Of a stretch of 64,000 nt of DNA, positions 14,426 to 42,090 are shown one piece after another. Origin of the DNA: Candidatus Nomurabacteria bacterium (GTDB lineage: Bacteria > Patescibacteriota > Minisyncoccia > Phycocordibacterales > UBA918); contig JACKGF010000001.1 of NCBI GenBank assembly GCA_020632095.1, positions 326,638 through 390,637 on the forward strand. Direction: 5' to 3'. A program made the translations under genes and the position numbers. The notes beneath the pieces were generated by a model. The model worked only from the letters and a program-made list of their open reading frames with translations, searched no databases and was not told where the DNA came from. Positions within the stretch are counted from its first letter, which is position 1. Every line of letters starts with the position of its first letter.

Positions 14426-17194
14426 CTACCTCATTGATGGCGCTGGTGGAACCGGTGGAGCTGGCTTTTGGTATCGAACGCGGATTTCTTCTTCTATTTC
14501 TGCTCGATCATATCCATATCTCTTATAACTATCCTCAATCAATCTTTGTACTCTGACCAAATCTGTCTCGGCTGGAGCCATAGTCCCCATACTAAAAGGA
14601 GGAGTTGGGGTACCGTTAGCTAATACCCTCATAAAAGCATTAGCATTAGGTACATTCATCAAATCACTAGCGGTAAAAGTAGGCTTAAACTGTTGTTCCA
14701 AAAACTGTGCGTCTTCCGGACCAACCCGAAAGGCCGCCATTGAACCAACGTTACCAAACACAGCATCTTTAATATCTGGCTGCAGCTGTGCGATAAACTG
14801 GTGTGCGATTGTCAGACCAAGCTTGTACTTTCGTGCTTCAGACAAAATAGCCGAAATGGAGTTAGTTGAAATATTTTGAAACTCGTCCATATGAAGATAG
14901 AACGGTGGGAAACTTTTAGTTGGGTCATCCACTCGTGACAACGCCGCCATCAAAATCTTTCCCACAAAAATCATACCGATCAAACTAGAGTTAATTTCAC
15001 CCAAACGACCCTTAGCTAAGTTGACCAAGAGAATCTTACGCTCATCCATTACCTTTCTAAAATCAAAAGCGGACCTTTGCTGACCAATAATCGGTCGCAT
15101 GTAGTCATTGGCAGTAAACACGTCAAACTTTGATACGATGTATGGCACGATATTTTCAAGTGAAGCTTCTCCACCTGCCTTGGTCGCAATTTCAGTCCAA
15201 AATTGTATTACTACAGGATTAGTTGCTTTCTCCAATTTTTTCTTTCGAAAAGGAGCATCAACCATTACTCGTCCAATATCCATCAAGGTATTACCGCTCT
15301 CAGGATCTTCCATCACCAACATTGTCGCATTACGAAAATACTGTTCAAACATCGGACCCATCGACTCCGGATTTGCTCCATACAATTTTTGGAAAATCGA
15401 GAAAAGTTCATTGACTACAAAAGTCTTCATTTCAGGCTTACTGTAGTCATACTCAAGCATATTAAGCCCAATCACCCTATCCATTCGTGATGGATCAAAG
15501 TAAATTATGTCTTGCTCACGCTCAGGCGGTACTGCCCCAAGTACATCCTCAATATCAGTACCGTGCGGATCAATCAGACAGACTCCTGACCCTTGCTGAA
15601 TGTCCTGGATAATCATGTTCTTCATCAAGGTTGTCTTACCTGTACCAGTCTGACCAATAATATAAAAATGACGCATACGATCGAGCTCACTGATGAATAT
15701 TTTTCGTTCAACGTTACGGTGCCTATTAATACCCAACAAAGTACCTTCGTTTGGCATCTCGGTTGGGGCTGGTGCGGTATTTGAGTGGGACTGCTTCACT
15801 TGTGGAGAAGCTAAGGTTCCATCACCCGGAAAATGCATTAATGTTGCTAGCTCTGCCAAAGACAGTGGGATAGTATTTTGAGTAGAAAACTGTCTAAATG
15901 AAAACGCCTTTTCTCCCATCCTTAAGTTCGAGCCGCTTAATGTCTTGAATTTAATTTGATTACCCGCGGTTGTATCAAACTGATTGAAGGTTGACTCTAG
16001 TTCAGTCAAAATTTGTTCCGCTCGATGCTTTTCCGTCGCTGACACAACCACCCTAATATTAACCTCAACTATTGGCTTGGCTATTTTCTTGCGGAATATT
16101 TCAATTGCCTGACTATCTACTTCCTTGACCGGTTCTATTTCACCCTCTTTTTTCTTAGAAGAAAAGAAAAAATCACTAACACTAGCCAAAATTTCACCGC
16201 CTACGGTACTGCGAGAAATCGCCTCGCCTGGCTTAGTTCCTTTTTCGACTAACTTTATCACTTCCTCGTAGGTTTTTTGGTAAGTTTTCTTCGGATGTCG
16301 AATTACAAACTGAATCGCTGCTCCCCCACCCTCACGCTCAATTTTAGAGAAAGCATTGAGGATCACTGCCAAAGGATCTGTAGAGAATTCGTCTTGGGTC
16401 TTGATTGAATAAATCGGGTTTTTCTTAAGTTCAAGATTGGCTACCAAAGTATGACCCTTATCAACATAGATATTGTAATCATGGACTTGTTCCTTCAGAA
16501 CAGCATTTGGGAAAAGCGATAAGGTCTGCTTTTCAAACAAAGATTTGAATTCATTTGGTACCGCTACATAAAAAATAATATCGTCACTATAATCAGCCAC
16601 TGCAATCTCAATGACGAAGTGGTTTCCTTCCTTGGCTGAACCAATGGTGCGTAGACCCGAGTATAATTGCTCCATCTTACCCACCAAATCTCCGAGCGCT
16701 AAATCATTACCATCAATCGACTTTTGGGCCGGCAATGTCACTTCATACAAGGTCATGTGCAAAACATGCCAAGGTGGTACCCCTTCTTTTAAATCAGCCA
16801 TTTCTACCCCACTTTGAATATGTTCAATTAGCCGCCTGTGAACCTCATCTATCACGTATGCGTTGGTGGTCTTGTCTAGTACCGTCAAGGCATTACGAAT
16901 TCCTTTTTCTAAGGCGATCTGCATAACTTCTTCCACCGGATCGTGCGCTGTATCAACCAACTCTACTGACTCAGCCAAAGCTTGCCCTTGTAACTCATAA
17001 TCCGGATGAAGAATTACTTTTGGTGTAAAGCTCACATACTCTTTGATCTGTTCTCGACCGAGCGTTTCACTATCGGCTTTATCTATCTCAGGCGTACGCG
17101 CCAGTACTTCACGCTCACGTTCTGCAATCTGCTGACGTAGAAAATTTATTTCCTCCTCCGGAGAAGAAAACTGCTTAGTATAGCCTTCATTCAT
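14426..17194 (-). CDS. FtsK/HerA/TrwB-superfamily P-loop ATPase (type IV secretion coupling-protein-like, soluble)
   Basis: 922 aa. It has Walker A (GQTGTGKTT), DPHG, Walker B (HMDEF) and a sensor (TIAHQFIAQL). The order and spacing resemble TraD/TrwB/VirD4 and DUF87 ATPases. The N-terminal domain of about 520 aa has no TM helices and no recognised family. Confidence 0.6.
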   Translation of the reverse strand: MNEGYTKQFSSPEEEINFLRQQIAEREREVLARTPEIDKADSETLGREQIKEYVSFTPKVILHPDYELQGQALAESVELVDTAHDPVEEVMQIALEKGIRNALTVLDKTTNAYVIDEVHRRLIEHIQSGVEMADLKEGVPPWHVLHMTLYEVTLPAQKSIDGNDLALGDLVGKMEQLYSGLRTIGSAKEGNHFVIEIAVADYSDDIIFYVAVPNEFKSLFEKQTLSLFPNAVLKEQVHDYNIYVDKGHTLVANLELKKNPIYSIKTQDEFSTDPLAVILNAFSKIEREGGGAAIQFVIRHPKKTYQKTYEEVIKLVEKGTKPGEAISRSTVGGEILASVSDFFFSSKKKEGEIEPVKEVDSQAIEIFRKKIAKPIVEVNIRVVVSATEKHRAEQILTELESTFNQFDTTAGNQIKFKTLSGSNLRMGEKAFSFRQFSTQNTIPLSLAELATLMHFPGDGTLASPQVKQSHSNTAPAPTEMPNEGTLLGINRHRNVERKIFISELDRMRHFYIIGQTGTGKTTLMKNMIIQDIQQGSGVCLIDPHGTDIEDVLGAVPPEREQDIIYFDPSRMDRVIGLNMLEYDYSKPEMKTFVVNELFSIFQKLYGANPESMGPMFEQYFRNATMLVMEDPESGNTLMDIGRVMVDAPFRKKKLEKATNPVVIQFWTEIATKAGGEASLENIVPYIVSKFDVFTANDYMRPIIGQQRSAFDFRKVMDERKILLVNLAKGRLGEINSSLIGMIFVGKILMAALSRVDDPTKSFPPFYLHMDEFQNISTNSISAILSEARKYKLGLTIAHQFIAQLQPDIKDAVFGNVGSMAAFRVGPEDAQFLEQQFKPTFTASDLMNVPNANAFMRVLANGTPTPPFSMGTMAPAETDLVRVQRLIEDSYKRYGYDRAEIEEEIRVRYQKPAPPVPPAPSMR

Positions 17195-18740: not shown

Positions 18741-19838
18741 CTATTTCTTGGCTAACACTGCCCGCTTATAAACATCCAAGTGCTCGAGAGCAACGCCGGT
18801 GCCTTTTACTACACAAAATAAAGCTTGGTCGGCGACGGCGGCTTTGACGCCAGTGCGGCGGCGGATTAACTCTGGAAAGTTACGTAACTGCGACGTACCG
18901 CCAGTCATGATGATTCCACCGTCGATAATGTCAGCCGATAGCTCAGGCGGTGTACTTTGAAACACGTGCTTAATTGCTTTAATCATCTCACGCATTTCCT
19001 TGCCAATTGCTCGCACCACTTCATTACTCTTAATTTCGGTTGTTCGTGGCAAACCTGACAACATGTCACGTCCTTTAATCTCCATCGTCAACTCTTCTTC
19101 CAGTGGCAAGGCGGAGCCAACGGTAATTTTAATATCCTCAGCGGTCTTTTCACCAATCGCTAAGTTGCGACTTTTCTTGACATAATCAATAATCGCTGCG
19201 TCGATACGGTTACCTGCACATTTTACAGAATTGGAAGCCACAATTCCCCCCAAAGAAATCACCGCTACGTCGATGGTTCCTCCTCCAATATCAACTATCA
19301 TGTGACCTTGTGGTTCATATATTGGTACCCCTGCCCCAATCGCAGCCAAAATTGGTTCTTTTACCACATAAGCATTTCTTGCTCCGGCTTTCATCGCGGC
19401 TTCCACCACAGCCCGTCTTTCGGTCGAAGTCACACCAGCTGGCACCGACAGCATGACATCAGGTCGAAATAAATTGTATCGACTCATAGACTTGCGAAGG
19501 AAGTAACGGAGCATAGCCTCGGTCACCCGGTAGTCAGCAATTACTCCGTCCTTCATCGGGCGATAGGCGCGGATATTCTCCGGTGTACGTCCAATCATGA
19601 GCTTAGCCTCTGAACCAACCGCCAGTACTTTATTGTCCTCAGACACCGCCACCACCGAAGGCTCATTCAAAACAATCCCTTGCCCCGGCACAAAAACCAA
19701 AATACTAGTCGTACCCAAATCAATCCCAATCTTCGGAGTTAAGTTACCAAACATAAGTAGTGACCATAGTATCAGGGTGGCGAGAAAAGAAAAGCAAGTT
19801 AAATGAAAACCCGATATTACAAAACAAACCATCCGCAA
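18741..19838 (-). CDS. second actin-like MreB/Mbl paralog (true start possibly internal)
   Basis: IGIDLGTTSILVFVPGQGIVLNEPSVVAV, DIGGGTID and the rest of the MreB core are present. The 365-aa ORF begins with a hydrophobic 30-aa extension that may be upstream read-through; the start may be the M of MFGNLTPK. Confidence 0.8.
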   Translation of the reverse strand: MRMVCFVISGFHLTCFSFLATLILWSLLMFGNLTPKIGIDLGTTSILVFVPGQGIVLNEPSVVAVSEDNKVLAVGSEAKLMIGRTPENIRAYRPMKDGVIADYRVTEAMLRYFLRKSMSRYNLFRPDVMLSVPAGVTSTERRAVVEAAMKAGARNAYVVKEPILAAIGAGVPIYEPQGHMIVDIGGGTIDVAVISLGGIVASNSVKCAGNRIDAAIIDYVKKSRNLAIGEKTAEDIKITVGSALPLEEELTMEIKGRDMLSGLPRTTEIKSNEVVRAIGKEMREMIKAIKHVFQSTPPELSADIIDGGIIMTGGTSQLRNFPELIRRRTGVKAAVADQALFCVVKGTGVALEHLDVYKRAVLAKK

Positions 19839-19854
19839 CTCTAGGTCGGAAAAT

Positions 19855-19872
19855 AGTACGATTAATCGTACT
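19855..19872. promoter_or_regulatory. perfect 18-bp palindrome in divergent intergenic region
   Basis: AGTACGATTAATCGTACT lies between the MreB-paralog start and the PEP-CTERM gene. It is a candidate operator, and a TTGACA box lies about 30 bp downstream. Confidence 0.3.
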
Positions 19873-20008
19873 ATTTCGGTTAGTTTTGTTTGACAGGCAG
19901 GATTTTCTATATTACTCTTTCCCTGGGTATAGTTCTATTTGTCCGAGATATTCGGACTTGCCCTGTACAACCTTTTCCATAACAGTAGACAATTTGGAGT
20001 AAAACGGA

Positions 20009-20665
20009 ATGAGAAAGATTATTGCAGGACTAGCATTCGTCCTCATGGTGTGCACTGGAGTAGCGTACGCCGGGTATGAGGAACCAATGCCAGACAGCGG
20101 CTTCCTGAACGGCTTGGGAGCATGGAGCTTCGCCGGCAACGCCCCCGTTTTCACCAATTCACAAACGGTGTCAACTGGGGGGACGGCGGGCTCGGGACCA
20201 ACATCATTCACCACCATCAGTTCGCCGGAAGCCGGCAATTACGTCGCTATCTACGGCACCGCAATTCTGATGTCGCCAGTGGTCAAGGTAAAAGTTGGCG
20301 ATAAATTCATGAGCGTCGTGGCATTTTCGGGGGAAGACTATCCCCCATTCAATGACGCCTTTACGGTTGGGCTAATCTCAGTACTGACCGGCAACACACT
20401 TGCCTCGGTAACTTGGTCCATCGACACGATCGGTGGAGCCTACAGCCTCATGCCGTGGACACAGTTTTTGCACACGTTCACCGGCGACGACGAGTTGCAG
20501 TACTTCGTGAAGATCGAGAACATTCTCGACAGACAGTTAGACAGCTGGGGCTTCTCAACCGCTGGTACCATCCTTCGCGTACCGGAGCCCGCCTCACTGG
20601 TCCTGATCGCCATCGGCCTGTTCAGCATCTTCGTACTCGCTGGCCGTCGCCGCAAGCAAAAGTAA
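20009..20665 (+). CDS. secreted PEP-CTERM-domain protein (signal peptide + VPEP-TM-RRRK sorting tail)
   Basis: The N-terminal signal peptide is MRKIIAGLAFVLMVCTGVAYA. The C-terminus, RVPEPASLVLIAIGLFSIFVLAGRRRKQK, matches the PEP-CTERM consensus. The gene looks markedly more GC-rich than its neighbours. Confidence 0.7.
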   Translation: MRKIIAGLAFVLMVCTGVAYAGYEEPMPDSGFLNGLGAWSFAGNAPVFTNSQTVSTGGTAGSGPTSFTTISSPEAGNYVAIYGTAILMSPVVKVKVGDKFMSVVAFSGEDYPPFNDAFTVGLISVLTGNTLASVTWSIDTIGGAYSLMPWTQFLHTFTGDDELQYFVKIENILDRQLDSWGFSTAGTILRVPEPASLVLIAIGLFSIFVLAGRRRKQK

Positions 20666-20687
20666 CATCGTCGGCGTCGCCGGCAAA

Positions 20688-20718
20688 GAGGCCTACCCGC
20701 AGTGGTAGGTCTTTTTTT
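20688..20718 (+). terminator. rho-independent terminator of the PEP-CTERM gene
   Basis: AGGCCTACC-cgcagt-GGTAGGTCT followed by TTTTTTTAT. Confidence 0.7.
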
Positions 20719-20756
20719 ATTTCCCCAACTGACTCTAGACAAGGTGTATAGCATAT

Positions 20757-22274
20757 ATGCTATACTGTAGTGGTATGCAACATATCGGAAATATTATCGC
20801 GGATATTCGCGAAACTCAGGGAATTACTCAGCAAGCTTTAGCCAAGAAAATTAATACCACGCAAAGTGCTATCGCTAGAATGGAATCAGGCAATCAAAAT
20901 GTCAGCGCCGATATGCTGAAGAAAATTAGTAAGGCACTAGGCAAAAACCTCATCACTCTATCCCCTGGCACCGTCAACGTTTCTATCGAAGGAGGCAAGA
21001 AGCTGACTGGAATAATTGAAACCAACACCTCAAAAAACGGCGCCGTAGCTCTCCTCTGTGCCTCTTTAATAAACAAAAACACTACCACCCTGCACCATGT
21101 ACCACGCATCGAGGAGGTCCACCGAATAATTGAGGTGTTGGAAAGTATCGGCGTCAAAGTCGACTGGCAAGGCACCACCGTAGTAATCACCCCACCCAAG
21201 CAATTTGCTTTGGATAAAATCGACGAAGTGGCCGCCCGTAAAACCCGCAGTATCGTGATGTTTATCGGACCACTCATTCACCAATTAAAATCTTTTTCAC
21301 TTCCCCAGTCTGGTGGGTGCAAGCTTGGCAGTCGCACTGTACGACCCCACTTCTACGCTCTGGAAAACTTTGGTGTCAATATCAAAACCACTGATGACTC
21401 TTTTGTAGTAAAAGTAGTCGATAAGCGACCGGCGGAAATCATTTTGTATGAATCTGGTGATACAGTGACCGAAAACGCTCTGTTTGCTGCGGCTGGTCGC
21501 ACTAACACGACCGTTATTAAATACGCTTCTGCCAACTACATGGTGCAGGAAGTTTGTGCTTTTCTACAGCTGTTTGGAGTCAAAATTGAAGGGGTTGGTA
21601 CCACCACTCTAACTGTTACCGGTGTAGCACATATAGACCAAGCGGTTGAGTATACCCTGTCCGAAGACCCGACCGACAGTATGTTTTTCTTGGCAGCCGC
21701 CATTGTCACTCAATCTGAAATCACCATCACCCGCTGTCCGATTGAATTTTTAGAAATAGAACTTCTGAAGCTAGAAAAAATGGGCTTTAAATACAAGAAG
21801 ACCAAACCATATTTCAGTCACAACTGTTCAACCAAACTAGTAGACATCACGACCAAACCGTCAAAACTAAAGGCCTTACACGAAAAAATTCACCCTTCTG
21901 TTTACCCAGGCCTAAATATCGACAATCTTCCTTTCTTTGCTGTGATTGCTACCCAAGCAGATGGACAAACTCTTATTCACGATTGGGTTTACGAAAAGCG
22001 AGCTATTTACTTCACGGAGCTAGACAAACTTGGCGCTGATACCGTATTGGCTGACCCGCATCGTATCTACATCAACGGTCCAACCAAACTCCGCGCGACC
22101 GAGCTCATCTGCCCACCTGCCCTGCGTCCCGCCACTATTCTGCTTATCGGCATGTTGGGCGCACAAGGTCAATCTATCCTACGCAATATCTACAGTATCA
22201 ATCGTGGTTACGAGAAGCTGGTGGAGCGCCTCGCTTCGCTCGGCGCCTCAATCTCCTACCTAGACGAGTTCTAA
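20757..22274 (+). CDS. murA: UDP-N-acetylglucosamine 1-carboxyvinyltransferase with in-frame N-terminal XRE-type HTH domain
   Basis: Residues about 8-65 match the XRE HTH pattern (ETQGITQQALAKKINTTQSAIARMESGNQNVSADMLKKISKALG). From LSPGTVNVSIEGGKKLTG onward the protein aligns with MurA, including SKNGAVALL, the catalytic loop GGCKLGSRTV and C-terminal NRGYEKLVERL. No stop separates the two parts. Confidence 0.8.
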   Translation: MLYCSGMQHIGNIIADIRETQGITQQALAKKINTTQSAIARMESGNQNVSADMLKKISKALGKNLITLSPGTVNVSIEGGKKLTGIIETNTSKNGAVALLCASLINKNTTTLHHVPRIEEVHRIIEVLESIGVKVDWQGTTVVITPPKQFALDKIDEVAARKTRSIVMFIGPLIHQLKSFSLPQSGGCKLGSRTVRPHFYALENFGVNIKTTDDSFVVKVVDKRPAEIILYESGDTVTENALFAAAGRTNTTVIKYASANYMVQEVCAFLQLFGVKIEGVGTTTLTVTGVAHIDQAVEYTLSEDPTDSMFFLAAAIVTQSEITITRCPIEFLEIELLKLEKMGFKYKKTKPYFSHNCSTKLVDITTKPSKLKALHEKIHPSVYPGLNIDNLPFFAVIATQADGQTLIHDWVYEKRAIYFTELDKLGADTVLADPHRIYINGPTKLRATELICPPALRPATILLIGMLGAQGQSILRNIYSINRGYEKLVERLASLGASISYLDEF

Positions 22275-22307
22275 AATTTATTCTCACTATTAAAGTCTAT
22301 ATGAAGA

Positions 22308-22348
22308 CCCTAAAAAAACCTTTTGGTTAACCGAAAGGTTTTTTAGGG
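22308..22348. terminator. bidirectional terminator between murA and the convergent methyltransferase gene
   Basis: A roughly 16-bp stem, CCCTAAAAAAACCTTT-tggttaacc-gAAAGGTTTTTTAGGG, with A/T runs on both sides. Confidence 0.6.
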
Positions 22349-22418
22349 TTTCCTAATTACAAACCAAACAAAACCGACCAGTTTGACATTTATATCTGAA
22401 ATAGAACTTAATTAAGCT

Positions 22419-23105
22419 CTATTTTTGCATATACGCTACCCAATAATTCCTTTTGTAGCTTTGGTTATTCATTTTGGCGTAGTTAGATTTCTTTTCTAAT
22501 CTGAGAATAGAAAAATATTTTGAATACAGTTCGATGAAATCTGATTCGGTAAAAACTCGTTCAACTAATCCCATATCTTTATTTATGTAAGTGTCCTTTT
22601 CTAAACCTGGGTTTAACTTGATGAGGTTTTTAGTATGCTTGTCGCCGTCCTTACACAAACCCCGAAAAAAGAAGTAGCCCCCTGTTTTTAAAACTCTACT
22701 TGTTTCGGCTAGATAAATCTCTCGTTCTTTTTCATTCAACGAATTAGAAGACATAACATCAATCACCAAATCAATCGAATTGTCTTCAAGAGGATATTTT
22801 TCTCCAATATTTAAAACACGGTAATTTGTATTAAACAAACCTTGTTCAGACGCTCTTTGCTTTGCCAATTCGACCGCTGTTTTAGACAACTCAAACCCTG
22901 CCACTTGAAATCCTAAGTCGGCCAAGTAATTTCCATTACGACCAGTACCTGAACCAAGATCAAGAGCTTTTAAATTATTAAAATCATCACCCTGTTCTTT
23001 GCGCAGAAATTTGACAAATATCTTTAAATCCTTGCGTGGTTCTTCGCTCAGAGTAACTAATTTAGGATTATAATACTCCTTTTCCCACACCTCTTTTTGC
23101 GCCAT
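22419..23105 (-). CDS. class I SAM-dependent methyltransferase (small-molecule/protein type)
   Basis: Motif I LDLGSGTGRN and post-I acidic residue with the downstream Rossmann pattern are present. No DNA-MTase target-recognition motifs (DPPY/NPPY) were seen. Confidence 0.75.
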   Translation of the reverse strand: MAQKEVWEKEYYNPKLVTLSEEPRKDLKIFVKFLRKEQGDDFNNLKALDLGSGTGRNGNYLADLGFQVAGFELSKTAVELAKQRASEQGLFNTNYRVLNIGEKYPLEDNSIDLVIDVMSSNSLNEKEREIYLAETSRVLKTGGYFFFRGLCKDGDKHTKNLIKLNPGLEKDTYINKDMGLVERVFTESDFIELYSKYFSILRLEKKSNYAKMNNQSYKRNYWVAYMQK

Positions 23106-24164: not shown

Positions 24165-26057
24165 ATGTTTGTCATTCAAGTTACCCCTCTGATTCGCGGC
24201 ACCCAACTTGAATCTCTTTCATACTATTCTGGAGTTTCCTATGAGGTAGGAAGTTTTATTGAAGTTCCAATTAGGGGCAAAAAACAACCCGCTGTGGTGA
24301 TTGAAGTTAAGTCAGCCAGCCATACCAAAACTGCTCTAAAGGCAGCCACTTTCTCACTCCGAAAACTACCCAACCAGGCTGATCCGGTTATCTTACCTGA
24401 AACCATCAGGAAAACCGCCTCAGAACTAACAAAAATCTACTCTGCTTCTGTTGGATCAATTTTATACAGTTTGCTACCACCTGATGTCAGAAGCGGTAGT
24501 AGGCCCTACCCAAGATCAGAAGACAACACCCAAAACGAAGAAACTACTCCCCAGCTTCTCACTGCCAAAGTGGATGAGCGTTATGTAATTTACCAAGGGC
24601 AGATTCGTAGCATCTTTGCTCACCGTGGTTCGGTATTATTTGTCGTACCAACCGCTACCGAAGTCGAATATGCTGTAACAGCTCTTAGTCAAGGTATTGA
24701 AGATCGAGTAATTGTATTTTCCCCTAGCCAAACCAAACGTCAGCGTGACGCTTCATACAAAAAACTTGAAGATACTACTCTTACCAAATTAATTATCACT
24801 ACCCCAGCTTACGCTTATTTTGAAAGAATAGATTTAATTAATATTATTATTGAACAATCTGCCAGCGGACATTACGTAACCAGACAAAGACCGTACCTTG
24901 ACCACCGTGATGCTCTAATAACTTTTGCCAAAGTGTCTGGTCGTTCAATCCTGCTTGGTGATCTGACACCTCGCACTGAAGATGAAGCCAAACGTCGCGA
25001 TGAAATTTACTTAACCTACGGCGAAGAAGCTAAGCGAATTGCTTTTTCAGCCCCACTTACTATCATCACTCAAAAAGATAAACCTAAGCCAGAAACCCCT
25101 TTTCAGCTTTTTTCTACTGAATTAGTCACGAGCGTGGAGCGGGCACTGGAGGCACGAGGTCATGTCTTCTTTTATGCGGCTCGTCGTGGTCTCGCACCAG
25201 TGGTAGCTTGTATTGATTGTGGCTATATCTTCCGCTGTCCTGACTCCAACACCCCCTACTCACTCATGCGCACAATGAAGCATGGTCAGGAAGAACGTTG
25301 GTTTGTTTCTAGCACCTCAGGGCGACGTGTACGCGCCGCTGATGTTTGTCTCAACTGTGGCTCTTGGCGATTACGTGAACGTGGTATCGGTATCCAACAA
25401 GTATATGATGAGTGGAAAAATCTGTTGCCCAATTACAATGTAACCATAATGGACAACACCACCGCTTCCACCGCCAAACAAGCTAAAAAAGTCGCTGATG
25501 AATTTTTCGCTCAACGTTCAGGAGTATTAATCGGCACTCAAATAGCACTACCTTTCTTAAGTCAAGGAGTTGATGTTAGTGCGGTTATCTCACTCGACGC
25601 TGCCCGCACTATTCCTACTTGGCGTGCCGACGAATCTCTTTTCCGGCTATTAATGCGTCTCCGCGAATGTACTCACAAAGAAGTAATTGTTCAAACTCGT
25701 ACGGAAACTGACAACTTAATGATTCACGCTACCCGTGGCGCCATTGAACGTTTTTATGACGACGAAATTGCCCTCCGTAAGATGCTCCAATACCCTCCCT
25801 ACAGCACCTTTATTCTACTAACTTGGACAGGCACCAGTACCTCAGTCCTCGAGTTAGAAAAACCCATTAAATTAATATTAGAAAATCAGTCAGTCCAATA
25901 CTACAACAATCCCAACTCCACCAACAGCAAAACTCTTCGTCATGGCTTAATCCGTATCCCAAATTCAGACAAAGAACTTTACGTCACCTGCCTCAAAGCC
26001 ACCCGCAATCTACCACCCTACGTAAAAATCGAAATCAACCCCGAAAGGATTGTCTAA
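24165..26057 (+). CDS. priA: primosomal protein N' (PriA) homolog with degenerate helicase motifs
   Basis: A PriA-like N-terminal 3'-DNA-binding region is present, plus the Cys-rich zinc module (CIDCGYIFRCPDS ... CLNCGSWRL) and C-terminal GTQIALPF...QYPPYS regions. The Walker A (expected GxTGSGKT) and DEEH positions are replaced by non-consensus residues. It is followed by def-fmt, a conserved order. Confidence 0.7.
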   Translation: MFVIQVTPLIRGTQLESLSYYSGVSYEVGSFIEVPIRGKKQPAVVIEVKSASHTKTALKAATFSLRKLPNQADPVILPETIRKTASELTKIYSASVGSILYSLLPPDVRSGSRPYPRSEDNTQNEETTPQLLTAKVDERYVIYQGQIRSIFAHRGSVLFVVPTATEVEYAVTALSQGIEDRVIVFSPSQTKRQRDASYKKLEDTTLTKLIITTPAYAYFERIDLINIIIEQSASGHYVTRQRPYLDHRDALITFAKVSGRSILLGDLTPRTEDEAKRRDEIYLTYGEEAKRIAFSAPLTIITQKDKPKPETPFQLFSTELVTSVERALEARGHVFFYAARRGLAPVVACIDCGYIFRCPDSNTPYSLMRTMKHGQEERWFVSSTSGRRVRAADVCLNCGSWRLRERGIGIQQVYDEWKNLLPNYNVTIMDNTTASTAKQAKKVADEFFAQRSGVLIGTQIALPFLSQGVDVSAVISLDAARTIPTWRADESLFRLLMRLRECTHKEVIVQTRTETDNLMIHATRGAIERFYDDEIALRKMLQYPPYSTFILLTWTGTSTSVLELEKPIKLILENQSVQYYNNPNSTNSKTLRHGLIRIPNSDKELYVTCLKATRNLPPYVKIEINPERIV

Positions 26058-40269: not shown

Positions 40270-42090
40270 CTATTTCAACTGAGATTTTACTAATTTTGCA
40301 AAAGTATTGATGTCGGCCTCTTGAGCTTTTAGCGCTTTAGTGAAAGTATCGGCTTTTGTGGTATCGATTCCAATACTCTTGAAGATATTAGCAACATTAT
40401 CCGAAGCTCCTGCCGTGAGGAATTGGTCGATTTGTTGTATATAAGAATTATCTTCTTTATACTTAGTAGCCATAATAGTACTCATCAGCAAACCAAATGC
40501 GTAGGTGTAGACATAAAATCCATAACGTAGGTGTGGGATAGAGACGAAGCTGTAACCGTCCGCTTCATTCACAGTAACAGCCGGACCCAAGTAGGTCTTC
40601 AGATGCTTTTGGGTCATCTTGCGGAACTCCTCTTTAGACATTGCACCTTGTTTGTTAATAGTATTATGAATATCTAACTCAAGATTAAAAAAGGCAATCT
40701 GGCGTTGGATAGTCGCAATGTCTCTAGTAATGCGATCATGTAACAACACAGTTTTTTGAGCTACGGAAGCTTGTTTGTACACTACGTCAAAAACAAGATT
40801 CTCAAATAAAGTACTGGCGGTCTCAGCGGTTACTGTCGAGTGACCTTCATAAAATGTAGTGCGTTGCTTACTACGTTCAGCATGGATGGCGTGCCCCATT
40901 TCATGAGCCAGTGTCTCAAGTGATTTAAAATTGCTAACATGATTAAGCTCGACCTGTGTCGGCAGACCTACCTCAGCAGACATAAACGCTCCACCCCGCT
41001 TCCCTTTCTTTGGAAAAACATCTATCTGACCATTTGTAAGCATTCTGTCAAAAATCTGACCATATTCTGTCTTGAGACTATAGAAAACATCTCTACAAAT
41101 TTCTACCGCTTGGGTGAAGTCAATCGCTATTTCTTTTCTGATTGAGTCATATTTCTGACTATAGTCGATAGTGTCAACACCATGATACTGAGCTTTAATT
41201 TTATAAAACTTCTTACTCAAAACAAAACCTTTAGTACTAACTGCTTCTACCAAATTCTCAATGCTTTTTTCAGTATCTTCATACCTAATAGCCGTCGCAC
41301 TATACGGCTTATGATAACCACGCAATTCATCTTCAGTACGAACATCAGTTATGATAGCGTTAAATTCATGTTCGGCCACTTCAGCGATCTGTTCCATCTG
41401 GGCCATTATTAGCTTCCATAACTTTGGTTTTTGCTTACTTGGGAGAGTTTCTATCAGGTTTGATGCTTCATTTATTGGAAGCTCTTTACCAGACCATTTA
41501 ATTTCACGGTTTCCAATTATTTTCTCAGTCATCTCTGTCCACATCTCATATGACTGTCGACTCTTTAAGTTTACAATTTTCTCTTGATCTTCACTCAGAT
41601 GATGACTAGCCTTAATAAACACTCTCTCAAGATAATAACGGAAATGCTCCAACACTGGGTCCTGCAAAAGCTTAGTTTGTTGCTGTTTAGTAACTGATCC
41701 TAGGGCATGCTTAAAAAAAAGCATCTCGGACTGGAGTTTTTGAAAACGACGATGGATAAGAGCTAACTGCTGATTGGCTAAGCTATCATTTGTATTTAAC
41801 ACCATCCGAAAATAGAAATATCGCACTGGACGACTACTTTCAGGCATACCTGCCAACACCTCTTTTTCAGTCAAAGCTTTTTCAAGTACTTTTGCATCAG
41901 AGGTAAAATCCTTTCCTTTCCATTTCTTAATAAAGGCTCGATAAGCCTTTTCGGTTGACTGTAAATCAGCCTCAATCAGTGGGTCTTTTTCAGATTTGTA
42001 GTAAAGTTTTTTTAAGTCCCATTCGGTTTTAATAGCACCAAGCTTTGGAAGTTCTCGAGTTGCTTTAAATTTAAACATCTTAACTTGCAT
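40270..42090 (-). CDS. pepF: oligoendopeptidase F (M3B family)
   Basis: 606 aa with the HEXXH zinc motif (LAHEMGHAIH), a downstream Glu and the M3 architecture. Confidence 0.85.
   Translation of the reverse strand: MQVKMFKFKATRELPKLGAIKTEWDLKKLYYKSEKDPLIEADLQSTEKAYRAFIKKWKGKDFTSDAKVLEKALTEKEVLAGMPESSRPVRYFYFRMVLNTNDSLANQQLALIHRRFQKLQSEMLFFKHALGSVTKQQQTKLLQDPVLEHFRYYLERVFIKASHHLSEDQEKIVNLKSRQSYEMWTEMTEKIIGNREIKWSGKELPINEASNLIETLPSKQKPKLWKLIMAQMEQIAEVAEHEFNAIITDVRTEDELRGYHKPYSATAIRYEDTEKSIENLVEAVSTKGFVLSKKFYKIKAQYHGVDTIDYSQKYDSIRKEIAIDFTQAVEICRDVFYSLKTEYGQIFDRMLTNGQIDVFPKKGKRGGAFMSAEVGLPTQVELNHVSNFKSLETLAHEMGHAIHAERSKQRTTFYEGHSTVTAETASTLFENLVFDVVYKQASVAQKTVLLHDRITRDIATIQRQIAFFNLELDIHNTINKQGAMSKEEFRKMTQKHLKTYLGPAVTVNEADGYSFVSIPHLRYGFYVYTYAFGLLMSTIMATKYKEDNSYIQQIDQFLTAGASDNVANIFKSIGIDTTKADTFTKALKAQEADINTFAKLVKSQLK

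Follow-up and report, generated by a model that had tools for sequence, protein, structure and literature searches.

We analyzed a 64,000-nucleotide stretch of a Candidatus Nomurabacteria genome (contig JACKGF010000001.1, positions 326,638 to 390,637; hereafter the window, with positions counted from its first letter), in which one gene on the forward strand encodes a helix-turn-helix (HTH) domain of the XRE type joined to MurA, the committed-step enzyme of peptidoglycan synthesis. Our best reading, which we consider likely on comparative grounds, is that the product (HTH-MurA) is a bifunctional trigger enzyme, that is, a MurA and an autorepressor of its own gene. A first-pass annotation of this DNA had offered autoregulation or tethering to the nucleoid or a partner as possible meanings of the fusion, and autoregulation is the one that the evidence supports: a palindrome that 72 of 80 sequences share lies on the gene's own -10 element and varies together with the recognition helix of the HTH.

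The HTH domain and MurA in one protein

The open reading frame (ORF), its parts and the divergent upstream gene mreB are as follows, with residues numbered from the conserved start codon.

20757–22274, + strand: ORF of 505 aa, as given in the list of open reading frames
20757–20759, + strand: upstream in-frame ATG, inside the palindrome, not a conserved start
20775–22274, + strand: HTH-MurA coding sequence, 499 aa plus stop, N-terminal peptide MQHIGNIIADIR; leaderless mRNA probable
20775–20951, + strand: XRE/Cro-C1-type HTH domain, residues 1–59
20856–20885, + strand: recognition helix T28-T-Q-S-A-I-A-R-M-E37, within the HTH
20952–20978, + strand: flexible interdomain linker, residues ~60–68 (about 9 residues)
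20979–22271, + strand: MurA (UDP-GlcNAc enolpyruvyl transferase) domain, from Pfam, NCBIfam and structure comparison
21033–21035, 21318–21320 and 21921–21923, + strand: catalytic codons of K87, C182 and D383, mapped from E. coli MurA
18744–19754, - strand: mreB, upstream of HTH-murA and divergent from it

The claim of the first-pass annotation that an XRE-type HTH is translated in frame with a complete MurA is borne out by Pfam and NCBIfam, which detect the two domains within a single ORF. In Pfam, HTH_3 spans residues 14–65 of the 505-aa ORF (E 1.9e-14, 53.9 bits with the cutoff at 23, profile positions 1–52 of 55) and EPSP_synthase (PF00275) spans residues 78–492 (E 1.7e-47, profile positions 2–417 of 417), with no stop codon between them. 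Modeling of the full ORF, which the first-pass annotation had also proposed, gave the same layout of HTH helices, linker and MurA fold: the AlphaFold2 (AF2) model of the 499-aa protein has a predicted local distance difference test score (pLDDT) of 90.9 and a predicted template modeling (TM) score of 0.84. Its HTH consists of four main helices (residues 2–14, 19–25, 30–37, and 45–55; pLDDT 70–89) and a short fifth one, which fits the helical bundle expected of HTH_3, and the linker falls below pLDDT 50 at residues 60–65. An alignment of 122 fused proteins, 52–88% identical to the window protein, shows no variation at R12, Q19, T28, R35, E37, G39, and N42, and HTH-MurA scores far below the cutoffs of all NCBIfam antitoxin and phage-repressor models.

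Relatives were collected from one genome per GTDB species. Confirmed relatives were found in 369 species-level Patescibacteria genomes, of which the best 80 were fetched and 79 were full-length. The search for orthologous fusions suggested by the first-pass annotation thus returned an HTH in 79 of 79 full-length related loci, all from Patescibacteria and all matching from residues 1–4 to about 499. Among the matches listed (80–100% identical to the query), all of the at least 120 clusters at 90% identity combine HTH and EPSP_synthase, and at the level of 50% clusters fused forms reach 31–38% identity. Genomes that carry the fusion include ones labeled Liptonbacteria, Taylorbacteria, Colwellbacteria, Doudnabacteria, Tagabacteria, and Minisyncoccia. 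Judged from these comparisons, the fusion is not an artefact and is widespread in Patescibacteria. A clade of unfused MurA proteins of the type found in the candidate phyla radiation (CPR; 431–451 aa, 64–88% identical to P0121) is interleaved with the fused proteins. A neighbor-joining tree with Fitch parsimony gave 20 gains or losses of the HTH, a number inflated by fragments and long branches, and we use this tree only for the statement that fused and unfused forms appear interleaved.

The start codon of HTH-murA could be placed by comparison. A database protein with 100% identity (MCA9357062.1 / MCB9814086.1, source label Candidatus Nomurabacteria/Kaiserbacteria, product name plain MurA) has 499 aa and begins MQHIGN, which corresponds to ATG 20775. 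The equivalent ATG is kept in the 79 related loci, and most relatives are 499–500 aa long with the HTH included. The start at 20757, with which the first-pass annotation began the gene, was rejected because its ATG is part of the palindrome and because many relatives lack it, have it out of frame or carry a stop 2–9 codons before the conserved start. On this evidence the true start is ATG 20775. The database holds both 505–506-aa and 499-aa forms; the longer entries start inside the palindrome at the 20757 ATG and thereby add six spurious residues, MLYCSG.

The first-pass annotation had further considered that translation begins at the internal MLKKISKAL, which would leave the HTH-like region untranslated and make the fusion an annotation artefact. 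The sole point in favor of this is the in-frame Met at residue 47, and that residue is Thr or Leu in 19 of the 80 sequences (the window and the 79 relatives). Across the 79 relatives the HTH codons have a nonsynonymous divergence (pN) of 0.23 and a synonymous divergence (pS) of 0.79, which is saturated; the pN/pS ratio of 0.29, next to 0.21 for the MurA part, indicates that the HTH region is under purifying selection. An internal start would also leave half an HTH, the promoter and its -10 element are positioned for the upstream ATG, and six unfused orthologues begin directly ahead of the MurA fold instead of at the position of the internal Met. We therefore rejected the internal start, to which we give practically no chance.

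The MurA part appears to be a divergent, CPR-type member of its family, because it passes the MurA subfamily model NF006873 (309.4 bits, cutoff 297) but misses the cutoff of the strict MurA equivalog model TIGR01072; it also scores below the cutoff of NF009470 (213.8 against 552). All of its best matches among solved structures are MurA enzymes (E down to 4.6e-51). Foldseek gave target-normalised TM scores of 0.88–0.95 to more than 40 MurA structures, above those to NikO or AroA, and the best match was 6q03, a closed complex with UDP-MurNAc. Within the MurA part of the AF2 model only the Cys-loop, at residues 182–184, has low confidence (pLDDT <50), in line with its flexibility in MurA structures that have been solved. 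We mapped catalytic residues onto E. coli MurA (fetched from NC_000913) and found the equivalents of K22, N23, R91, C115, R120, D305, R331, R371, and R397 invariant in 80 of 80 sequences. Our catalytic claims rest on the seven core residues (K87, N88, R158, C182, R187, D383, and R477 in the window protein), positions 331 and 371 being alignment-dependent in pairwise alignments. The MurA part thus looks catalytically intact, as far as conserved residues can tell. Canonical MurA (E. coli / E. cloacae; 1UAE, 1NAW, 3SWD) has in common with HTH-MurA the fold (TM 0.9 or better), the residues K22, N23, R91, C115, R120, D305, and R397 and the flexible Cys-loop, whereas identity is only about 25%, the UDP-sugar loop reads ESGDT in HTH-MurA and KVSVG in the canonical enzyme, and HTH-MurA has a small insertion near residues 340–375 and the HTH extension of about 68 residues.

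The gene order in the window is mreB, a PEP-CTERM gene, HTH-murA, a methyltransferase gene, a pilin-like gene, a 630-aa ORF, def, and fmt. A divergent mreB lies upstream in 75 of the 80 fused loci, and the 630-aa ORF lies downstream in 72. Six loci with an unfused murA (L135–L140) have the same order of mreB(-), murA(+), and an ORF of 620–640 aa or its remnant, which is PriA-like by Pfam in four of the six; def and/or fmt come next, again in four of six. Because the unfused gene occupies the same slot between mreB and the priA-like ORF, synteny identifies the fused gene as orthologous in position to an ordinary murA. The 64-kb window contains no second MurA-like region, and no second MurA was found within 4–5 kb on either side of any intact-fusion locus (about 120 loci); in some lineages murD, ddl or murB stands beside the intact fused gene (L085–L090, L075, L130). 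We take the fused gene to be the housekeeping murA copy, with its activity and its status as sole or essential copy being predicted.

A conserved palindrome upstream of HTH-murA

The region between HTH-murA and the gene before it contains the following elements.

20685–20716, + strand: intrinsic terminator of the upstream PEP-CTERM gene, a 13-bp stem followed by a T-run
20746–20765, no strand: putative operator, a perfect 20-bp palindrome GTATAGCATA/TATGCTATAC with 100% complementary arms
20748–20763, no strand: conserved core of the palindrome, ATAGC-N6-GCTAT, which ends 11 nt before ATG 20775
20758–20766, + strand: extended -10 element TGcTATACT, overlapping the right arm of the palindrome; predicted promoter role

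A search of the window for palindromic operators, as the first-pass annotation had proposed, gave a single exact site, a perfect palindrome over the gene's own -10 element. Within 300 nt upstream of the gene, the exact palindrome is present in 72 of 80 sequences, and in 61 of these 72 its end lies 9–14 nt from the ATG. The sequence ATAGC-N6-GCTAT occurs exactly once in the 64-kb window; as to further sites there, a lone site with one mismatch at 41288 is within chance expectation. Likewise, 71 of 80 related loci (about 9.5 kb each) contain exactly one exact site, always just upstream of the fused gene. A position matrix showed near-random flanks, with the symmetry reaching T(-1)/A(+16), and the conservation of the palindrome is therefore not general intergenic conservation.

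The terminator ends 30 nt before the palindrome and, as predicted, isolates the promoter of HTH-murA from the upstream gene. The matrix retains the extended -10 as T10-G11-c-T13-A14-T15-A16-n-T18. A consensus scan found no -35/-10 pair in the HTH-murA promoter; we therefore dropped a classic promoter and read the extended -10 instead. A search of positions 19700–22600 against Rfam for known RNA elements returned no match, even at E <= 1. With 8 nt between the end of the -10 element at 20766 and ATG 20775, a leader could have a few nucleotides at most, so that the HTH-murA mRNA is probably leaderless. At mreB we noticed an extended -10-like element, TGATACTAT, 11 nt before the ATG (window 19755–19800, - strand), and relatives keep GTACTATTGT beside the mreB start (compact loci such as L005, L002, and L015). 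Such promoters, from which mRNAs would start without a leader, may be frequent in this lineage. The motif TTTTCC(C/A)CAA, 20–29 nt left of the palindrome, was considered as a second regulatory site and rejected, because in compact loci it is the mreB spacer/-35.

The variation of the palindrome links it to the HTH. The fourth base of the palindrome arm changes, in both arms alike, with residue two of the recognition-helix motif, which begins TTQS in the clade of the window and TSQS in others. Among 112 loci with a clean site, 90 combine xTQS with ATAGC..GCTAT and 13 combine TSQS with ATATC..GATAT, whereas nine are hybrid or discordant. Across sets, TTQS/STQS goes with ATAGC..GCTAT in 89–90 loci and TSQS with ATATC..GATAT or ATAAC..GTTAT in 13–16, and two of the 113 loci that entered the tree break the pairing completely. 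The third symmetric allele, ATAAC..GTTAT (L141), and sites with one mismatch obey the same rule. In the variants the same base is altered in both arms, as expected of a site for a symmetric dimer. We take the varying helix residue to correspond to a base-contacting position at the start of helix 3 in the 434 repressor. A tree calculated with the MurA domain only shows about three switches between helix states.

The six unfused orthologues can be regarded as a natural deletion control for the putative operator. In all six the extended -10 (TGCTATACT, TGCTAAACT, TGCTAnACT-like) is retained, at a distance of 8 to about 30 nt from the ATG. None of the six has the left arm or the exact palindrome, and tblastn found no HTH remnant at any of the six loci. 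Together the covariation, the loss of the left arm without the HTH and the fact that the site travels with the HTH indicate that the palindrome belongs to the fused HTH. Sequence-specific binding of the HTH to it is a prediction from comparison only, namely from the conserved palindrome, the covariation and the left-arm loss.

Catalytically degenerate paralogues and the proposed circuit

In a wider set of 135 relatives, all nine catalytic residues are complete in 123. The other 12, which are fused proteins, lack the catalytic set: nothing recognisable is left of the Cys-loop, and other residues mostly stand at R91, R120, and R397. There are no intermediates between the 12 degenerate and the 123 fully intact proteins. 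The degenerate forms (HTH-pseudoMurA) include the following genes and proteins.

Locus L082, 10001–11518: HTH-pseudoMurA gene
Locus L083, 9975–11477: HTH-pseudoMurA gene
Locus L141, 8014–9536: HTH-pseudoMurA gene
Locus L142, 3506–5003: HTH-pseudoMurA gene
P0137, P0146, P0149, P0222, P0232: further HTH-pseudoMurA proteins

We examined four distinct contexts of the degenerate genes, L082 (similar to L118), L083 (similar to L084), L141, and L142. In all four, HTH-pseudoMurA is divergent from an operon with an unfused murA and murB and/or mur ligase genes, and a mur ligase or ddl gene directly follows it. The two unfused murA genes that were aligned, those of L082 and L083, have intact core catalytic residues. 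The palindrome, ATATC-N6-GATAT or, in L141, ATAAC-N6-GTTAT, is centred in the 40–75-nt divergent region, and in L141 it is flanked by the -35 boxes TTGACT and TTGACA on opposite strands, which are arranged as face-to-face promoters. The AF2 model of the pseudoenzyme P0274 keeps the MurA fold (pLDDT 87.5, TM 0.90). The pseudoenzymes have lost the arginines that bind phosphoenolpyruvate (PEP) and the Cys, and they partly keep an ESxDT loop that aligns with the UDP-sugar loop; this would fit a retained sensing of nucleotide sugars, but is only a hint. The precomputed Pfam annotation of the degenerate paralogues examined is still EPSP_synthase (MurA-type). From these contexts, the regulatory half appears to persist in a peptidoglycan-precursor setting after catalysis has been lost. 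A dead fused copy next to an unfused murA fits sub-functionalisation, and the pattern is as expected if a bifunctional ancestor split into an enzyme and a pseudoenzyme regulator.

We propose that MurA represses its own gene in a negative autoregulation of the committed step of peptidoglycan synthesis. The two HTH domains of a dimer would bind the half-sites ATAGC and GCTAT, whose centres lie 11 bp from each other, roughly one turn of the helix. With the -10 element and the start of a probably leaderless mRNA both under the site, the bound dimer would exclude RNA polymerase; that regulation is repression is inferred from the position of the site only. More speculatively, dimerisation or affinity for DNA could be tuned by the ligand bound to the MurA domain or by its conformation. 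MurA undergoes large open/closed movements, and complexes with UDP-MurNAc and the PEP-Cys adduct are among the matched PDB entries (3swd, 3su9, 3swe, 3swg, 8d84). Candidates for such a signal would be the open and closed forms driven by UDP-GlcNAc or PEP and the tight, "dormant" complex with UDP-MurNAc. Gating by ligand would couple murA transcription to the precursor supply and would avoid saturation of the single operator by an abundant enzyme; it has precedents in BirA and RbkR. In some lineages the fused copy would have lost catalysis and been retained solely for regulation, next to an intact murA encoded separately.

We hold with slightly less than even confidence a broader reading in which the HTH-MurA family would be a lineage of metabolite-sensing transcription factors with the MurA (EPSP-synthase) fold as effector domain. 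In most Paceibacteria-type Patescibacteria the protein would be a true enzyme and at the same time a repressor gated by UDP-GlcNAc, PEP or UDP-MurNAc; in some lineages it would be a dead-enzyme regulator that controls a divergent murA-murB/mur-ligase cluster through one shared palindrome.

Several points weigh against a bifunctional autorepressor. The score of 300.4 is below the TIGR01072 equivalog cutoff of 392.7, and the UDP-sugar loop is unlike that of E. coli, with GDT in place of SVG. The conservation of the right arm is confounded with that of the -10 promoter element, so that the operator-specific signal would lie in the left arm, in the symmetric variants and in the missing left arm of unfused orthologues only. 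The covariation, which counts about three independent transitions and includes some hybrid or discordant sites, is suggestive and not overwhelming. An abundant enzyme with an HTH on every molecule would be expected to saturate a single operator unless binding is of low affinity or ligand-gated, and we know of no evidence for functional MurA dimers. The search for a second murA and for further sites covered the 64-kb window and the locus flanks, and DNA binding, repression, enzyme activity, and transcription start are all predictions from sequence.

Three further alternatives were weighed. The palindrome might be a promoter element or the site of another regulator, with the HTH serving nucleoid tethering, protein contacts or binding elsewhere. 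The right arm is indeed the extended -10 that unfused orthologues keep, and binding of the HTH to the palindrome is itself a prediction; we nevertheless consider this unlikely, since the exact palindrome occurs in 72 of 80 fused and none of six unfused loci, which ties the left arm to the HTH, since both arms vary symmetrically and track the recognition-helix residue, and since the palindrome family accompanies the HTH into the unrelated context of mur clusters. It is very unlikely, in our view, that the MurA-like domain is only a sensor or dimerisation module and that another murA elsewhere provides the activity. The dead HTH-pseudoMurA relatives do resemble dedicated regulators, the TIGR01072 score would suit such a role, and the 64 kb inspected belong to a genome with a size of about 1 Mb. 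However, the core catalytic residues are invariant in 80 of 80 sequences, whereas true pseudoenzymes have lost them, and the fused gene occupies the syntenic slot of the unfused murA of relatives. Moreover, an unfused murA adjoins the degenerate gene in four of four cases, and no second copy was seen near the roughly 120 intact fusions or in the window. That the protein binds the palindrome to activate the gene, or to regulate the divergent mreB along with it, is likewise highly improbable. It would suit the compact loci, in which a -35-like element of mreB lies about 10–25 nt from the left edge of the palindrome, the degenerate systems, in which two divergent promoters share the site, and a promoter without a recognisable -35. 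Yet a site over the -10 and start region is the classic position of a repressor, XRE-type regulators at such positions are typically repressors, and in the window mreB is separated from the palindrome by an inserted gene and a terminator.

Relation to known systems and neighboring genes

The first-pass annotation had remarked that a fusion of MurA with a DNA-binding domain was not known to it. This holds for the literature on MurA with HTH, CPR, Patescibacteria or Parcubacteria, in which we found no description or interpretation of an HTH-MurA fusion; the architecture itself is, as described above, widespread. A paper on fungal EPSP synthases lists HTH_3, without interpretation, as a "promiscuous" domain associated with PF00275 in 218 multi-domain proteins (PMC9394408). 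In the literature searched we found no trigger enzyme for cell-wall precursor synthesis, and the control of MurA that we did find is post-translational, by PASTA-kinase/ReoM/ClpCP in Firmicutes and by feedback complexes with UDP-MurNAc.

A close parallel in architecture is RbkR, the archaeal riboflavin kinase/regulator (PMC5397151), which also has an N-terminal DNA-binding domain in front of a pathway enzyme. The RbkR fusion is the sole orthologue of the enzyme in most genomes and has conserved catalytic residues, its DNA-binding domain has been lost in some lineages, and its operator was found by comparative genomics upstream of genes of its own pathway (PMC5397151). RbkR differs in that it combines a MarR-type winged HTH with a CTP-dependent kinase fold and acts in archaeal cofactor metabolism, and in that it was tested biochemically, CTP activating and FMN inhibiting DNA binding (PMC5397151), whereas HTH-MurA is known from sequence alone. 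BirA, NadR, and PutA are named as classical "trigger enzymes" where PMC5397151 cites Commichau and Stulke (2008). Like HTH-MurA as we read it, each is a single polypeptide that works in metabolism as an enzyme and represses genes of its own pathway; they differ in that they act in vitamin, cofactor or amino-acid metabolism. In BirA, DNA binding needs a dimerisation driven by the ligand of the enzyme, which would be a plausible model for a MurA-gated dimeric operator. No homology to BirA, NadR, PutA or RbkR was found, as Pfam and NCBIfam show only HTH_3-type and EPSP_synthase/MurA matches. The likeness is thus one of logic and not of ancestry, and by analogy the architecture and operator of HTH-MurA fit the class of trigger enzymes. 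With the XRE/Cro-C1 autorepressors (434 Cro/cI, SinR, many antitoxins), HTH-MurA shares a short helical HTH_3, a helix starting with a Q-S motif and a palindromic operator over its own promoter with half-sites about one helical turn apart. In contrast to these, its C-terminal partner is an enzyme of 430 residues and not a small oligomerisation or toxin-binding domain.

That one protein can be enzyme and repressor at once is a known principle; the components, the pathway step, the operator, and the pseudoenzyme offshoot appear to be new. MurA catalyses a committed, antibiotic-targeted step, and a repressor domain that the enzyme itself carries would, if true, be a new regulatory solution for peptidoglycan synthesis. 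The fusion occurs in hundreds of species of Patescibacteria, a very large and mostly uncultivated radiation with few transcription factors. Should the metabolite-sensing reading be true, it would be the first description of a transcriptional feedback circuit dedicated to the committed peptidoglycan step and the first use of the MurA/EPSP-synthase fold as the sensor of a transcription factor. The degenerate paralogues would illustrate cleanly how a bifunctional protein divides into an enzyme and a pseudoenzyme regulator. A concrete operator, a covarying helix residue, and natural controls make the hypothesis testable without cultivating the organism. For annotation, the findings mean that 505-aa calls begin inside a putative operator and that the dead paralogues examined still carry the EPSP_synthase label.

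The remaining features around HTH-murA in the window are as follows.

14429–17194, - strand: 922-aa protein like HerA/DUF87 and TrwB-type ATPases (weak matches)
20009–20665, + strand: PEP-CTERM gene, encoding a 218-aa secreted protein with the C-terminal sorting motif PF07589
23504–24067, + strand: pilin-like protein with an N-terminal methylation motif
24165–26054, + strand: conserved 630-aa ORF with no Pfam match here; homologues in relatives have weak matches to PriA_3primeBD

PEP-CTERM/exosortase systems are typical of Gram-negative producers of exopolysaccharide and are odd in a Patescibacterium. The PEP-CTERM gene of the window has a GC content of 55.4%, compared with 40.4% for the window, and its own terminator, and is inserted between mreB and the murA palindrome. 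Homologous PEP-CTERM insertions between mreB and HTH-murA occur in a few relatives (L001, L006, L014).

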